DNA from: a virus
Reading direction: 5' to 3' (one strand)
DNA length: 35,851 nucleotides
UHGV virus genome: UHGV-0135983
Part shown: positions 25,218-34,641 of the stretch, piece by piece
How the letters are laid out: each line of letters starts with the position of its first letter
Numbering within the stretch: the first letter of the stretch is position 1
Program-made: the position numbers and the translations under genes
Notes under the pieces: model-generated
What the model was told of the DNA's origin: nothing
Databases searched by the model: none
The model's input: only the letters and a program-made list of their open reading frames with translations

Positions 25218-25886
25218 TTATGCCCTCTTGTTCTTCGCTGACTCGATGTAATAACGGGGATCAACGCTGTTAAGCGTGAAGTGAACCACCGGCATATCGT
25301 CGTGACGGGTGATACCCACGTAATTCGACATGAACATGCCGAACACGCGATCGTGAAGTTCTTTAATCGTCACCTGACAATCTGGATAGTGCTTCTGGAT
25401 TAATGCCAGGATGCCCTGGTAAGAAAGCGTTTTGCCTTTCATCACGGCTACCAGCTGCTGCGCGGTGACGCTCCCGGCGTCCTGCTGTTCGTCGCTGGCC
25501 TGCAATGGGCGGATACTCTCCAGCACCAGACGGTGACGGCCAATACTGCCGACGCGCTGGCCCGTTTTTTTATCGAAATGCTCATTGGAGCCAGCAGACC
25601 AGACGGTCGCACCTTCGCTAAGGCGAACGCTTTTTTCACCTCTGGAATAAATCACGGTGCCGATGTGGGTTTTACGCCTGCGGCCGGAAACCGTAGGGGC
25701 GATAATTTCACGCTTAATCGGTTTTTGCGGGGTGATGCCGGGTACAGGGGCCGGACGTGGCGCCGCTACGAACACGGAACGGCTACGGGCGCGCGCGCCG
25801 GCGTTCATGCGCCAGAGAATAACGGGGAGCCAGTTGCAGCCATCATCCGGTTTTACTGGTTTTGGGTAATTTAAATTCGTGGTCAT
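25218..25886 (-). CDS. Hypothetical protein (222 aa)
   Basis: The ATG is preceded by the conserved GAGGAAAGACCAATG cassette. Confidence 0.6.
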   Translation of the reverse strand: MTTNLNYPKPVKPDDGCNWLPVILWRMNAGARARSRSVFVAAPRPAPVPGITPQKPIKREIIAPTVSGRRRKTHIGTVIYSRGEKSVRLSEGATVWSAGSNEHFDKKTGQRVGSIGRHRLVLESIRPLQASDEQQDAGSVTAQQLVAVMKGKTLSYQGILALIQKHYPDCQVTIKELHDRVFGMFMSNYVGITRHDDMPVVHFTLNSVDPRYYIESAKNKRA

Positions 25887-25906
25887 TGGTCTTTCCTCGG
25901 TTAAAT

Positions 25907-28313: not shown

Positions 28314-28535
28314 TCAAATCCCCAGCGAGTCAGCCAACTGACGGCAGGCGATTTCGTATTCTTTCTGGGTGAGTCCCGCTTCCTGCAGGTCTGCCTTGCG
28401 CAGTTCATAGCGTTCCCAGATTGTCAGCGCAGTAGCGCGACGCTCTTCGAAAATCGATTCGATATCTTCCATCGGGACTTGTACCCCGTTCCGGCGAAAC
28501 CCATTCCGCCAGGTGATGCGGTCTTGTGTTCTCAT
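28314..28535 (-). CDS. Small protein with Arg-rich N-terminus
   Basis: The ATG at 28535 follows the GAGGAAAGACCAATG cassette and gives MRTQDRITWRNGFRRNG... Confidence 0.5.
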   Translation of the reverse strand: MRTQDRITWRNGFRRNGVQVPMEDIESIFEERRATALTIWERYELRKADLQEAGLTQKEYEIACRQLADSLGI

Positions 28536-28555
28536 TGGTCTTTCCTCGGTACAGG

Positions 28556-29793: not shown

Positions 29794-29844
29794 TAACTTT
29801 TGTTAGTAAAAAATATTGCCAATAAAAATACCTTTGGTTATGCT
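29794..29844 (+). promoter_or_regulatory. Fourth operator copy plus candidate promoter(s) for the downstream + strand genes
   Basis: The operator is TTAACTTTTGTTAG (TAAC-N4-GTTA at 29794-29805). One promoter option is TTGTTA-18-AAAAAT. The other is TTGCCA (29816), 17 nt, TATGCT (29839). Confidence 0.4.
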
Positions 29845-29926: not shown

Positions 29927-30145
29927 ATGGAAAACGCTGTATTAGGTGCCGTCGGACCAACGCTGAATGTGTTGCTGGATGCACTGAAAGAAGAGAAAGG
30001 AGCCGCCAACGTCGAGGACGTCAAAGCGGTCATCCAGGTTATCAGTGAAGTTGTAGGCAAGTGCGATGGTGATCTGGCTACTGGTTACGCGGTTTGGGAT
30101 GAACTGCTGAATGCGGTGTTACGACATATTTCGACAAAGGGTTAA
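29927..30145 (+). CDS. Hypothetical acidic 72-aa protein in the immunity-adjacent slot
   Basis: A strong GGGGGAGGAG SD precedes the ATG at 29927. Confidence 0.5.
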   Translation: MENAVLGAVGPTLNVLLDALKEEKGAANVEDVKAVIQVISEVVGKCDGDLATGYAVWDELLNAVLRHISTKG

Positions 30146-30320
30146 GGCTAATACCCTCTGGTGGGTATAACTCTCGATTGATTCTCACGACTGCTGACAT
30201 GAAATCTACACGGTTATCAATCGGCATCGTAGACAAAATTACTGTCAATAATACCTGGTGTGCTTTCAGCTCTTCTCTGACTGCAGCTAGCTCAGATTTA
30301 AGTTGTTCAAGTTCCGACAT
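30078..30320 (-). CDS. Hypothetical 80-aa protein with an N-terminal coiled-coil, convergent with and overlapping the previous gene
   Basis: The ATG at 30320 follows AAGGG and gives a protein-like sequence, MSELEQLKSELAAVREELKAHQ... I could not find a convincing promoter. Confidence 0.35.
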   Translation of the reverse strand: MSELEQLKSELAAVREELKAHQVLLTVILSTMPIDNRVDFMSAVVRINRELYPPEGISLNPLSKYVVTPHSAVHPKPRNQ

Positions 30321-30424: not shown

Positions 30425-30772
30425 GCGGGAAAGACCGCAACGAACATCCATTGCTGTGTGTAGTCTTGGCCGGGCGCCCCGGGCATTTTTTTAACACAGT
30501 AACGATTTATGCGACCCTTCAGTGAAAACTGAAGCCCTCGAAAAGAGGGACCCCGTGAGGAAAGACCAGTGAGCCTGACCAGCTCTGGCGCCGGGAAAGA
30601 CCGGGAGGAAAGACCAATGACCTACGGGCATGACCAGCCCTGACAGCCGGGAAAGACCGGCAACCTTTAGATGGCAAAAGGCCCGCACAAGGCGGGCCAG
30701 TTACCCCGAACGGTGACCAAACCATTCGGACTTATCACAAGCGACCAAGCTTGTGATGAGGAAAGACCAATG
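30425..30772 (+). repeat. ORF-poor array of repeated hairpins and RBS cassettes (possible structured RNA or regulatory array)
   Basis: CGGGAAAGACCG occurs three times (30426, 30592, 30648) and GAGGAAAGACCA three times (30557, 30605, 30758). The array holds seven stem-loops plus the terminator hairpin. It includes an imperfect tandem unit at 30557-30604 and 30605-30661. Confidence 0.55.
30470..30492 (+). terminator. Plus-strand intrinsic terminator
   Basis: The sequence is CCGGG, CGC, CCCGG, then GCATTTTTTT. The T7 run is on the + strand only. Confidence 0.5.
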
Positions 30773-31401: not shown

Positions 31402-31430
31402 CCTGCGCCAGTAACTAAGAGGAAAGACCA

Positions 31431-33650
31431 ATGACCATCTACAACGGCTTATTTGAGCCAAAGAAATCGGCGATTAAAGACTGCGGCGCCGTGCAGCTGG
31501 CGATCGCCATCGATGCGCCAAACAAAAAAGTGGCCGAAAGCATTATGACCGGCAAACTCTGGGAATCATACCCGGCCAATGGTGACAACTATTTCAAACC
31601 GAAACTGTGGGAACACGTTGAAGGCCAGCCGCTGCCGACCGTTGGCCAGTTCGATGAGTCATTCGCCCAGCAGCATACTTTTGACGGTGAAAAATGGGTT
31701 TCTACTGCGCAGGATAGCGCTTCCGGAAGCAGTGCAGGTTTACCTGCCGACGATGAAGTGATCGACCTGATGACCGTTTCCGCAGAGGAACGCTTTGCTG
31801 CCGTCCTGCTTTTTAGCACCGCTGCGATTGATGGCCATCTTTATTCTCAGGTTGTGGATTATCTGGATAACCTGAAAAACCACGATGGCGAATTTGAAGA
31901 GGAAGATCGCTTTAACTTTAATGTGCTGTGCGCCCTACAAAATAACTTCCCGGTTCAAAGCATGCATGTGGAAGGTCTGAATAACCTTGTTCAGGGGATT
32001 TTCTCCCACTTTGAAAACCAGACGCCAGGCAAAGCGGCTATCTCTCAGTTCGTTAAACGCTGGCTTGAGAATCCGGGCAAGCGCGACGAACTGGCCCCCG
32101 GCGTATATAAAAATACCGCTCTCAGCACCAGCACCAGCACCAGCACCGATGATAAAACACCCGTGGTAATTTCTAAGCGGGGTTATAAACACACATATGC
32201 AACGCTGGATCAGGAGATCGCTACCGCCCTTCTCCCGCTGGCGCCTGATGCGCCGGTACTATCCGGAAACCTTCTGGACGCTAAGAAGATGATTGCCGAT
32301 GACCGGGAAGATTTTAAACGCTGGTCTGCATCGCTGCACACCACTCCGCAGATACTCAAATATGACCGCGCCAGCATCTTCGGTGTAGTGCAGAACGTAC
32401 CGGCGAAAGATACCTACCATTTCCCTGACAGCCTGCGCCGCCATATCGATTCATGGCTGGAGGCCAACGGCCGCTTTGAAGAAACCGATACAGGATCCGT
32501 TAAACAGACAGAGGCAACGCAAAATATCGCCTCAAACGTGGGCGAAAAAGCGGAAGTGCCGCAGACGGTTGTAACCGATAACCAAGCGAAACAGGCGCGT
32601 GAGGCGCTCAACGATATGGGCTATGGCGTATATGCATCTGGTGAAGGTGCGGAACCGGAAGATAAGTTAAGCGTTAAGGCTGAGAAAATAGCAGATGAAG
32701 CTGCTCGTTTGTCTCGTGATATTAACCTCAAAGATCGCATGCCAGATGCCGGAGATTTGATTCCAGCAATTCAACCAAATGAAAATATAGCCTCAAAAAA
32801 AATTGAATCATATCTATCTGAATTGAATGACGACCAGGCCAAAGCAAACCTTAGCGTCTGGAATCGCGTCCAGCGCACAGATCCGGCCTTCGTCGAAAAG
32901 AACAGTTTCGGCGCAGGGCTTCACTCAATCCGGGCGCAGTACATGCTGATGCGCGCAACGGAAGTTCTCGGAATGGAAGGAACCGGTTGGGGCGTTGATA
33001 TCAAAGAAGAGCGCATAGATCGAGGTGTGCCGCTTATGGAGCCAATACAGGACCAATCAGGAAAAATAATTGGCCAGAAACCGGTAAGGGACGGGGATGG
33101 CTCATTATTCTGTTTATCCGTACATACAATTCGGATTGAACTCTGGTACCTGCGAGACGGAAAGAAGGGGCGCATTCCGGCCTATGGACATACGGATTAC
33201 ATCACCAAGGGTGGTGATGGTGCATTAAAAATGGAGAAAGAAGCCGCCAAAAAATCACTGACTGACGCTACAACCAAAGCACTATCCCATCTCGGATTTG
33301 GTGCAGACGTGTACATGAACATGCATAACGACAACGAATACACTTCAAAATTGAATGAGATATTCGAAATCAAAAAAGCCAGCGAAAGCATAGAAGATAT
33401 AGTGCGACTTCGTCAGGAATTAGACGACGATCTTACCTCCGTTGCTGAAACCCTATCTACTGGCGTGACTGTTAACGAAGTTGAAAAGGTTTTTGGCACG
33501 ATAGCCCGAAAACTCGAAGTTCACCGCAAGGATGCAGAATCAAAAGGCGATACACAGCGCTCTCGGTACCTCAGTGGCCGGTTGCGCCGCCTGACTGAAA
33601 TCAAAAATGGACGTCTCGCCGAACTAAATAAATCCGAGGAGAAAGCATAA
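31431..33650 (+). CDS. Large fusion protein: unknown ~470-aa N-terminal region plus Rad52/Sak-type single-strand annealing domain
   Basis: The C-terminal part contains GLHSIRAQYMLMRATEVLGMEGTGWG...KEAAKKSLTDATTKALSHLGFGADVY, a Rad52-family signature. The RBS cassette lies at 31419. Confidence 0.6.
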   Translation: MTIYNGLFEPKKSAIKDCGAVQLAIAIDAPNKKVAESIMTGKLWESYPANGDNYFKPKLWEHVEGQPLPTVGQFDESFAQQHTFDGEKWVSTAQDSASGSSAGLPADDEVIDLMTVSAEERFAAVLLFSTAAIDGHLYSQVVDYLDNLKNHDGEFEEEDRFNFNVLCALQNNFPVQSMHVEGLNNLVQGIFSHFENQTPGKAAISQFVKRWLENPGKRDELAPGVYKNTALSTSTSTSTDDKTPVVISKRGYKHTYATLDQEIATALLPLAPDAPVLSGNLLDAKKMIADDREDFKRWSASLHTTPQILKYDRASIFGVVQNVPAKDTYHFPDSLRRHIDSWLEANGRFEETDTGSVKQTEATQNIASNVGEKAEVPQTVVTDNQAKQAREALNDMGYGVYASGEGAEPEDKLSVKAEKIADEAARLSRDINLKDRMPDAGDLIPAIQPNENIASKKIESYLSELNDDQAKANLSVWNRVQRTDPAFVEKNSFGAGLHSIRAQYMLMRATEVLGMEGTGWGVDIKEERIDRGVPLMEPIQDQSGKIIGQKPVRDGDGSLFCLSVHTIRIELWYLRDGKKGRIPAYGHTDYITKGGDGALKMEKEAAKKSLTDATTKALSHLGFGADVYMNMHNDNEYTSKLNEIFEIKKASESIEDIVRLRQELDDDLTSVAETLSTGVTVNEVEKVFGTIARKLEVHRKDAESKGDTQRSRYLSGRLRRLTEIKNGRLAELNKSEEKA

Positions 33651-34210
33651 TGACTTCCACTACTGCTATTGCCATCGCCGCGGACTATCAGAACCTGCTG
33701 CAACTGCTGGAAAGCTCTGATGACCTGACTCCGGAAATGATCGCCGATACCCTCGAAGGCATGGAAGGAGAGCTAGCCGATAAACTGGATTCCATCATGG
33801 TTATCGCACGTAATAACCTCGGCAATGCCAGCACCTGCGATGATGAAATAAAACGCTTGGCCGAACGTAAGAAGTTCTTTGAGAATAAGGATAAGGCTCT
33901 GCGTAAGTATATTCTCTCCTGCCTGATGGCGGCCGGGCTGGATAAGCTGAAAACGGCAAAAAACACTTTCACTGCTCGCAAAGGTAGCGTAAGCGTTGTG
34001 ATTGATAATACCGATCTTCTTCCCGATGAACTGGTGACTACCCAGGTTGTTATCGCGCCCGATAAAAAGGCCATCAAGGAAGCGATTGAATCAGCACAGG
34101 CAGCAGCGGCCCAGATTACCGCTGACGGCGGAGAGATACCGGAAGAACTGTTAAACCCAGTGCCGGGCGCTCACCTTGAGATTGGCGAACGTTCATTACA
34201 GGTGCGCTGA
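33650..34210 (+). CDS. Sipho_Gp157-family protein
   Basis: ADTLEGMEGELADKLDSI...EIKRLAERKKFFENKDKALRKYIL...KLKTAKNTFTARKG matches the family pattern. An ATGA overlap links it to the upstream gene. Confidence 0.7.
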   Translation: MTSTTAIAIAADYQNLLQLLESSDDLTPEMIADTLEGMEGELADKLDSIMVIARNNLGNASTCDDEIKRLAERKKFFENKDKALRKYILSCLMAAGLDKLKTAKNTFTARKGSVSVVIDNTDLLPDELVTTQVVIAPDKKAIKEAIESAQAAAAQITADGGEIPEELLNPVPGAHLEIGERSLQVR

Positions 34211-34211
34211 T

Positions 34212-34397
34212 ATGCTCAAAATCACCCTGAAGCGAGGGGATGCCATTCACGTTATTTTTCCTGATGGCACCAAAGGTAAGATCGAAGCCTGCGCACGTTG
34301 CGAGTTTGACTTTAATTTTCCCTATAGCGTGAAAATCACCAGAGAAAATGGCGCGCTACGGAATAAACCAAACCTGATTAAGCCTAATCAGAAATAA
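34212..34397 (+). CDS. 61-aa protein with a CsrA-like sequence pattern
   Basis: The sequence is MLKITLKRGDAIHVIF...NFPYSVKITREN. My recollection of E. coli CsrA is [15 protein letters not shown]...[12 protein letters not shown], the same 61-aa length. In an ungapped alignment L2, T5, G9, N35, P37, V40, R44 and E45 coincide. Confidence 0.4.
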   Translation: MLKITLKRGDAIHVIFPDGTKGKIEACARCEFDFNFPYSVKITRENGALRNKPNLIKPNQK

Positions 34398-34446: not shown

Positions 34447-34641
34447 ATGCTGCGATGGCAACCGGGAGCTGTATTGCTCTCAGATTTCGATATCAAGATT
34501 GGCCGGTTATCCGCCAGCGTACGAAAGAAGACCCTGACCAGGACTGAAATCGAACGCGCATGCGAAGAAGCTGATAACGCGATCGCCGGCATGATGAGGA
34601 AAGACCATGGTCAGAAAAAACGACCTTCTCACCGACGCTGA
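34447..34641 (+). CDS. Hypothetical small protein
   Basis: The ATG at 34447 follows GGAG. It overlaps the next gene by 35 nt, so support is weak. Confidence 0.3.
   Translation: MLRWQPGAVLLSDFDIKIGRLSASVRKKTLTRTEIERACEEADNAIAGMMRKDHGQKKRPSHRR

Follow-up and report, generated by a model that had tools for sequence, protein, structure and literature searches.

The virus genome UHGV-0135983, a stretch of 35,851 nt analysed here in full and referred to as the window, carries at positions 34212-34397 an open reading frame (ORF) of 61 codons whose product is possibly a very diverged, nucleic-acid-binding form of the CsrA fold, one that lacks the helix of CsrA and is active soon after induction. This reading, which draws on sequence comparisons and on a modelled structure, is put forward tentatively. 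The case for CsrA is made by unbiased scans that keep returning to CsrA, by an agreement that keeps its register towards either end of the protein, by a common architecture, and by a likeness that rises towards those CsrA-like proteins of phages that are themselves devoid of the helix. The likeness had been pointed out in an earlier note made from the sequence alone; the ORF sequence and the translation quoted there match the plus strand at these positions exactly. The window is a prophage and is related to the temperate phage ZF40.

The ORF is a genuine, conserved gene under purifying selection. Among eight copies, the ratio of nonsynonymous to synonymous substitution rates (dN/dS) lies between 0.05 and 0.18, with the same frame kept in all pairs and dS values of up to about 2 (dS could be estimated for 26 of the 28 pairs; the other two were saturated). 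These values refute the notion that the ORF is a non-functional chance frame between the neighbouring Gp157 gene and xis. That notion could appeal to the shortness of the ORF and to the want of an annotated function in any database; it must also face an ORF that has its own Shine-Dalgarno sequence and whose length, frame and both termini are kept across 12 named genera, and it deserves practically no credence. The genera, as given in protein records, are Klebsiella, Raoultella, Serratia, Salmonella, Citrobacter, Enterobacter, Pectobacterium, Brenneria, Yokenella, Escherichia, Sodalis and Rouxiella.

The window protein matches the profile of PHROG 2482 over its full length (residues 1-61 to 1-61, E 1.5e-27), and all 54 aligned members match the same profile. 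PHROG 2482, which includes gp05 of Pectobacterium phage ZF40 and the homologues from phages vB_SmeS_BUCT708 and BUCT709, is thus the family itself, with the same gene order and no assigned function; its members go by "hypothetical protein" throughout the databases. The family comprises at least 54 members and forms about 70 clusters at 90% identity in prophages. A HMMER search run exhaustively over 1.84 billion representative proteins returned just about 10 true relatives, indicating that the family is small and narrowly distributed; its members come from ZF40-like temperate phages and prophages of Enterobacterales. In the 54-member alignment, residues M1, G9, D10, I24, P37, I56 and N59 are invariant, and 90% or more of the members retain L2, D18, G19, G22, R29, R44, Q60 and K61. 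The C-terminal tail (46-61) closes with a conserved motif, LIxxNQK. Positions T5, N35, E45 and both cysteines vary. A zinc finger of the CxxC type (CARC in the window protein) was rejected, with C27 and C30 being replaced by S, G, R, L, E and others elsewhere in the family; a Pfam match to zf_Tbcl_Rhp7 (E 0.14) was obtained with the window sequence only. Large repeat proteins that matched the family profile were likewise discarded. One of them (P0010, 810 aa with 13 tandem repeats, E 2.4e-14) owes its match to a repeated chance motif, SSNGILKCTKQCLLDFHFF, and illustrates how repeat scores, when summed, can mimic homology; another (P0020) contains IPT-like repeats and its match is an artefact.

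When the 54 members were compared with the 24,736 Pfam families, CsrA was the family most frequently matched (18 of 54 members, in every case below threshold). The matches are always in register, pairing residues 1-45 with 1-45, 1-14 with 1-14, or 28-46 with 28-46. The next most frequent match, SH3_2, was found for 11 members, with a best E value of 0.04. Home-made hidden Markov models (HMMs) applied in both directions placed the real sequences at the 98th to 99.5th percentile of composition-matched shuffles. With the family HMM, 30 of 31 non-redundant CsrA sequences scored above the 95th percentile of 400 natural small-ORF decoys; with a CsrA HMM including diverged members, 31 of the 54 family members outscored the best of the 400 decoys, and the window protein obtained 7.0 bits against a decoy maximum of 5.0. 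The profile match to CsrA models that the earlier note had proposed as a check was therefore obtained in part: sub-threshold matches recur, and no match at the Pfam cut-off accompanies them.

CsrA homologues are already known in phages (PMC7366521); searches gave 88 records of them and 384 IMG/VR loci. Five very diverged phage CsrA-like proteins were retrieved with a permissive tblastn search and from the literature (PMC7366521). Those devoid of the helix (gp54 of Burkholderia phage Bcep22, which belongs to PHROG 8397, the protein of Escherichia phage Pondi, gp28 of Escherichia phage PTXU04 and an ORF of the faecal phage contig MT837633) resemble the PHROG 2482 family in being phage-encoded, in their size of about 60 to 90 aa, in lacking the EEIY region, and in the polar, basic or proline-rich sequence that follows the conserved arginine. 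They differ from it in that those scanned pass the Pfam CsrA threshold (57.9 bits for the MT837633 ORF, 48 for Pondi csrA and 32.3 for Bcep22 gp54, all without the EEIY helix region), whereas the family does not, and in that they occur in virulent or unrelated phages and not beside a Gp157 gene, as the family does. A fourth diverged protein (L181) scored 45.8 bits on a home-made CsrA HMM. The MT837633 ORF begins with MLKLSLKPGE, to be compared with MLKLSLKRGD in the family consensus, and it scored 14.7 bits with the family HMM (P ~1e-6 per sequence). Alignment of the family profile to that of these four diverged proteins with hhalign gave a probability of 94% and a score of 38.1; a column-permutation null for this score averaged 9.6 +/- 2.2 with a maximum of 18.6, and none of 240 permutations reached it. 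The probability was 68% against a CsrA profile that includes the diverged proteins and 91% against the MT837633 ORF alone. Tested singly against the diverged phage CsrA-like proteins, 51 of the 54 members beat all 400 decoys. In the reverse direction, a comparison of the MT837633 ORF with 38,880 PHROGs returned phrog_2482 among its six matches (residues 1-44 to 1-44, E 0.18). Of the remaining five families, four are strongly matched by canonical E. coli CsrA as well. No relatives of the MT837633 ORF were found in IMG/VR. With high gap penalties, the alignment of the family to the diverged proteins resolves into two in-register segments, 1-14 and 32-45, each of which exceeds or approaches the null maximum, plus a shifted middle segment.

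The architecture points in the same direction. AlphaFold2 predicts five consecutive strands within the first ~45 residues of the family protein (2-6, 11-15, 21-25, 30-34 and 41-45) and no helix, with alignments of 12 and 54 sequences in agreement (predicted local distance difference test, pLDDT, 82.6 and 84.3; predicted template-modelling score, pTM, 0.64); confidence is low for residues 46-61. CsrA consists of strands beta1 to beta5 plus a helix, H1, and its R44 is essential for RNA binding (PMC7366521). At position 44, no fewer than 90% of the 54 members likewise carry an arginine, a putative counterpart of the CsrA residue. The strands of CsrA come in the same order as the five predicted for the family and lie at nearly the same residue numbers. 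CsrA/RsmA (PF02599; structures 1y00 and, for the RsmE-RNA complex, 2jpp) and the family also have in common a length of about 61 aa, a start of the type M-L-x-[hydrophobic], G9-[E/D]10, P37, hydrophobic residues at positions 40 and 42, and R44. The family is set apart by an invariant or near-invariant D18-G19 turn (mostly PDG) between beta2 and beta3, which is not seen in CsrA, by its conserved LIxxNQK tail, and by a net charge of +6 as compared to +1; the window protein, at +6, is strongly basic. CsrA is an obligate strand-swapped dimer. The monomer model matched no CsrA structure, a comparison that counts neither for nor against the fold, as a monomer model cannot show an intertwined dimer. 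Its best match in a Foldseek search of the PDB was the Bap C region (E 0.71) and its best match in BFVD an uncharacterised phage protein of 67 aa (E 0.014); neither is significant. Of the CsrA fold anticipated in the earlier note, the five strands in CsrA order are thus present in the prediction, while the helix and a structural match of the monomer are missing.

Taken alone, the pair formed by the window protein and E. coli CsrA is weak and mildly unusual. The CsrA sequence given in the earlier note is identical to PDB 1y00, and a recount of its ungapped alignment gave the same nine identities (M1, L2, T5, G9, N35, P37, V40, R44 and E45); the six conservative pairs listed there were also found, on a check by eye. 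As features of the family, these matches fare unevenly: G9-[DE]10, P37 and R44 are conserved, whereas T5, N35 and E45, which vary in the family, are accidents of one sequence. Scored with BLOSUM62 over residues 1-48 without gaps and at offset 0, the pair obtains 6, as compared to -42 +/- 14 for shuffles (P = 1.3e-3); for the nine identities P = 5e-3, and offset 0 is the best among offsets -6 to +6. A BLASTP comparison of the window protein with E. coli CsrA gave no match at E <= 100, and searches of PDB sequences with phmmer and hmmsearch returned no CsrA.

A number of observations speak against kinship with CsrA. The window protein has no CsrA match in Pfam even at E <= 10, and none of the 54 members reaches the Pfam CsrA cut-off (PF02599, gathering threshold of 27 bits), the best (P0156) scoring 19.6 bits with an E value of 9.1e-4. 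The CsrA models of NCBIfam gave no match, nor did HMMER return any CsrA from the 1.84 billion representatives. Against canonical CsrA profiles, built from gammaproteobacterial and IMG/VR homologues, hhalign probabilities are only 3-5% (P ~0.01, in agreement with column permutations). The high values obtained with the diverged proteins lean largely on one sequence, since the probability falls to 41% once MT837633 is left out. Moreover, the default hhalign alignment contains compensating 6-residue gaps (family residues 10-24 are aligned to CsrA 16-30), which make it unfit for a strand-for-strand, five-to-five match. Helix H1 is not predicted after beta5, the EEIY motif is absent from the 54-member alignment, and R6 of CsrA is replaced by L, A or M in the family. 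Finally, the best sequence match in the whole PDB is the C-repeat of Bap and not CsrA, and hand-picked fragments of the Bap C-repeat and of AbrB reached 94% and 72% by hhalign, respectively. Such values for fragments of unrelated folds imply that pairwise hhalign probabilities are inflated on profiles as short as these.

The Bap match itself is of limited extent. Family residues 11-42 match 32 residues, TVKLTFPDGTTATGTADDQGNYTIDIPSNVDL, of the Staphylococcus Bap C-repeat (7dm0, 6m3a), whose repeats are of the V-x-V-x-F-P-D-G-T type, leaving out both conserved ends of the family. A single repeat gives E values of 0.13 to 0.74; the value of 1.1e-5 is inflated, as one chain contains the repeat twice in identical form. 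The repeat spacing in 7dm0, 86 residues, exceeds the length of the 61-aa protein, and the PDB names Bap a surface protein. The AbrB/MazE/SpoVT group, like the family, consists of small basic nucleic-acid binders and has in common with it a hairpin of the form L-x-x-G-D-x-V-x-V-x-F-x-x-x-G. AbrB-type domains are intertwined dimers; dimerisation of the family protein is putative.

These likenesses raise the alternative that the protein is a small DNA-binding regulator built of AbrB/MazE-like or SH3-like beta-hairpins and active in excision, integration or early transcription, and not on RNA. The segment LKRGDAVHVVFPDG..GII does resemble the second half of AbrB-type domains, SH3_2 comes second among the weak Pfam matches, the protein is strongly basic and its gene adjoins xis and int. 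Yet none of the 54 members has a Pfam match to AbrB or MazE at the threshold used, AbrB chains in the PDB are matched only at E values of 0.65-0.83 and over some 20-23 residues, and the motifs follow one another in an order that only a circular permutation could reconcile, whereas the CsrA matches cover the two ends of the protein and are in register. Neither by profile nor by fold did an SH3-like small beta-barrel qualify as a match. We regard a DNA-binding regulator of this kind as quite unlikely.

The gene belongs to the leftward early operon; a repressor-like gene (the equivalent in ZF40 is named putative cI repressor), a promoter-like site and a structured leader precede it. The local order is 739-aa exonuclease-like gene, Sipho_Gp157 gene, 61-aa ORF, 64-aa ORF, xis (DUF4224) and int, with nothing that resembles a promoter or a terminator on the coding strand between the exonuclease and int genes. 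This order is common to ZF40, BUCT709 and prophages of Serratia, Salmonella and metagenomic origin. It is kept even where the xis and int families differ (DUF4224, Exc, HTH_17, Arm-DNA-bind integrases), and each of the 27 IMG/VR loci in which a Gp157 homologue is followed by enough DNA carries the family gene, which ties the gene to the Gp157/exonuclease module and not to integration. The TGA stop codon of the Gp157 gene ends 1 nt before the ATG of the ORF, suggesting that the two are probably translationally coupled.

The same arrangement lends some colour to a different explanation, namely that the protein has a small beta fold of its own, unrelated to CsrA, and serves as an accessory subunit of the RecE-like exonuclease/Gp157 recombination module through protein contacts, for instance by its LIxxNQK tail; the resemblance to CsrA would then reflect convergence of short beta-hairpin motifs. 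Besides the constant position of the gene directly 3' of Gp157 and the 1-nt spacing, this explanation could claim the tail, where I56, N59, Q60 and K61 are invariant or nearly so in a region of low model confidence, a pattern expected of a docking peptide, as well as a confident single-chain fold (pLDDT 84, pTM 0.64) that matches no CsrA structure and a raw likeness to motifs of unrelated folds that is of comparable strength. It leaves unexplained, however, why CsrA should be matched recurrently and in register among 24,736 Pfam families, and why the family should come so close to the helix-less phage CsrA proteins, far above 400 natural decoys. To our knowledge, moreover, homologues of Gp157 occur in many other phages without this neighbour. 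An accessory recombination subunit of this kind, the main rival of the CsrA reading, seems somewhat unlikely.

The ORF is transcribed as part of the leftward early operon, its translation probably being coupled to that of the Gp157 gene. If the protein is indeed of the helix-less CsrA type, it would be a small, probably dimeric, nucleic-acid binder (most likely an RNA binder) that would regulate early lytic growth or induction; its LIxxNQK tail may serve to hold another protein. A common origin with CsrA, a dimeric state, the binding of RNA and the choice of any given target are all, it should be said, properties that we infer.

The earlier note had proposed GGA-containing cassettes and hairpins elsewhere in the window as natural targets of the protein. 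The motif [AG]GGAAAGACC occurs 12 times at no more than one mismatch, as compared to about two occurrences expected. Seven (G)AGGAAAGACCA(A)TG cassettes stand directly 5' of start codons on both strands, the starts being those of the exonuclease gene, xis, two rightward genes and three short leader ORFs. The GAGGAAAGACCA cassettes (also written GAGGAAAGACCAAUG) are the ribosome-binding sites used across the whole phage. Such uniform translation-initiation cassettes are unusual and might be regulator sites, or else linkers at which gene modules recombine. Related prophages have the cassette in front of the same two genes, exonuclease and xis; the form GAGGAAAGACC-ATG is also found 5' of xis in BUCT709 and in Serratia and Salmonella prophages. 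In ZF40 the cassettes read GAGGCAAGACC (at the xis position) and GAGGCAAGACCA, with GGC instead of GGA, although ZF40 carries the gene. Cassette GGAAAGACC and gene do occur together, but this reflects common descent only, every carrier being a member of a single phage lineage; where the gene seemed to be missing beside a cassette, the locus turned out to be truncated. A comparison of cassette variants with protein subtypes gave no clean pattern of covariation (GGC in ZF40, no cassette in the P0018 lineage, GGA in a diverged Serratia subtype).

Three copies of the motif fall in the loops or stems of CGG-GAAAGA-CCG hairpins (GCCGGGAAAGACCGGC) in the early leader, a 400-nt region that folds far better than shuffled sequences (z = -6.7). 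These hairpins look like lambdoid boxB/nut sites; an Rfam scan of the leader gave nothing above threshold. The first ORF after the promoter-like site (~29928-30146, delimited by eye) is not arginine-rich on inspection. Two short leader ORFs each begin right after a cassette and are followed by a GGGAAAGACC hairpin, an arrangement reminiscent of leader-peptide attenuation.

One may imagine that the family represents a hitherto unrecognised, helix-less CsrA-fold clade, fixed in ZF40-like phages, that runs a phage-autonomous, Csr-like translational circuit on the phage's own repeated GGA elements. The dimer would bind the GAGGAAAGACCA(A)TG cassettes at the exonuclease gene, xis and other genes, and perhaps the three leader hairpins, and would thereby set when, after induction, the recombination and excision functions come into play. 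Through LIxxNQK the protein would be held by an antagonist, much as CsrA is by FliW or CesT; Gp157 might be that antagonist. As targets of the protein, the GGA cassettes and hairpins are unsupported, with nothing to link them beyond co-occurrence in one lineage, and the circuit as a whole appears improbable.

Coordinates of the ORF and of other features in the window
Feature	Position	Strand	Remarks
61-aa protein CDS (PHROG 2482 family)	34212..34397	+	ATG to TAA, 61 codons, stop included
Shine-Dalgarno-like AGGTG	34200..34204	+	7 nt 5' of ATG, inside 3' end of Gp157 gene; read from sequence
Sipho_Gp157 family gene	33650..34210	+	Pfam PF05565, E 2.7e-36
739-aa exonuclease-like gene (phrog_2489)	31431-33650	+	Relatives match Pfam Exonuc_VIII (RecE)
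64-aa ORF (phrog_27062)	34447-34641	+	35-nt overlap with xis start; 3' end contains xis cassette
xis cassette GAGGAAAGACC-ATG	34596..34609	+	Candidate target only, not supported
Cassette of exonuclease-like gene (739 aa), GAGGAAAGACCAATG	31419..31433	+	Candidate target only, not supported
(G)AGGAAAGACCA(A)TG cassettes	25884-25898(-), 28533-28547(-), 30557-30571, 30605-30621, 30758-30772
Promoter-like site	29816-29844
CGG-GAAAGA-CCG hairpins (GCCGGGAAAGACCGGC)	30425-30438, 30590-30603, 30644-30659		4-5 bp GC stem, GAAAGA loop
Intrinsic terminator	30470-30492		~35 nt 3' of first hairpin
Two short leader ORFs	30569-30643		24 codons (GTG start); 8 codons (MTYGHDQP)

Some observations concern the neighbouring genes and the phages that carry them. 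The 739-aa exonuclease-like protein itself has no Pfam match; its C-terminal motif, KSLTDATTKALSHLGFGADVY, looks by eye like that of Rad52-type annealing proteins. The 64-aa ORF is kept in several of the related loci, not in all. The "Stenotrophomonas" phages BUCT708 and BUCT709 have the whole early-left module in common with enterobacterial prophages, at 74% nucleotide identity to the window, and the gene copy in BUCT709 (L001, OM816835.1) encodes a product that differs by one residue from that of an IMG/VR locus (L228). The Stenotrophomonas host stated for these two phages may be worth checking.

At best, the family is a new, sub-threshold variant of the phage CsrA homologues already known. 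Should its likeness to CsrA be due only to convergence, the protein would be an ordinary small phage protein with no known function. The role of phage CsrA homologues has barely been tested, the one experiment found being a knock-down of PTXU04_00028, which reduces plaque size (PMC11879866). If the helix-less CsrA reading is true, CsrA-type post-transcriptional control would extend to widespread temperate phages of Klebsiella, Serratia, Salmonella, Pectobacterium and their relatives. The CsrA fold could then shed its helix and drift under the detection limit of standard models, so that present surveys would undercount CsrA-like genes in phages, and the ribosome-binding cassettes of this phage group, which are unusually uniform, would gain a concrete candidate for their regulator.

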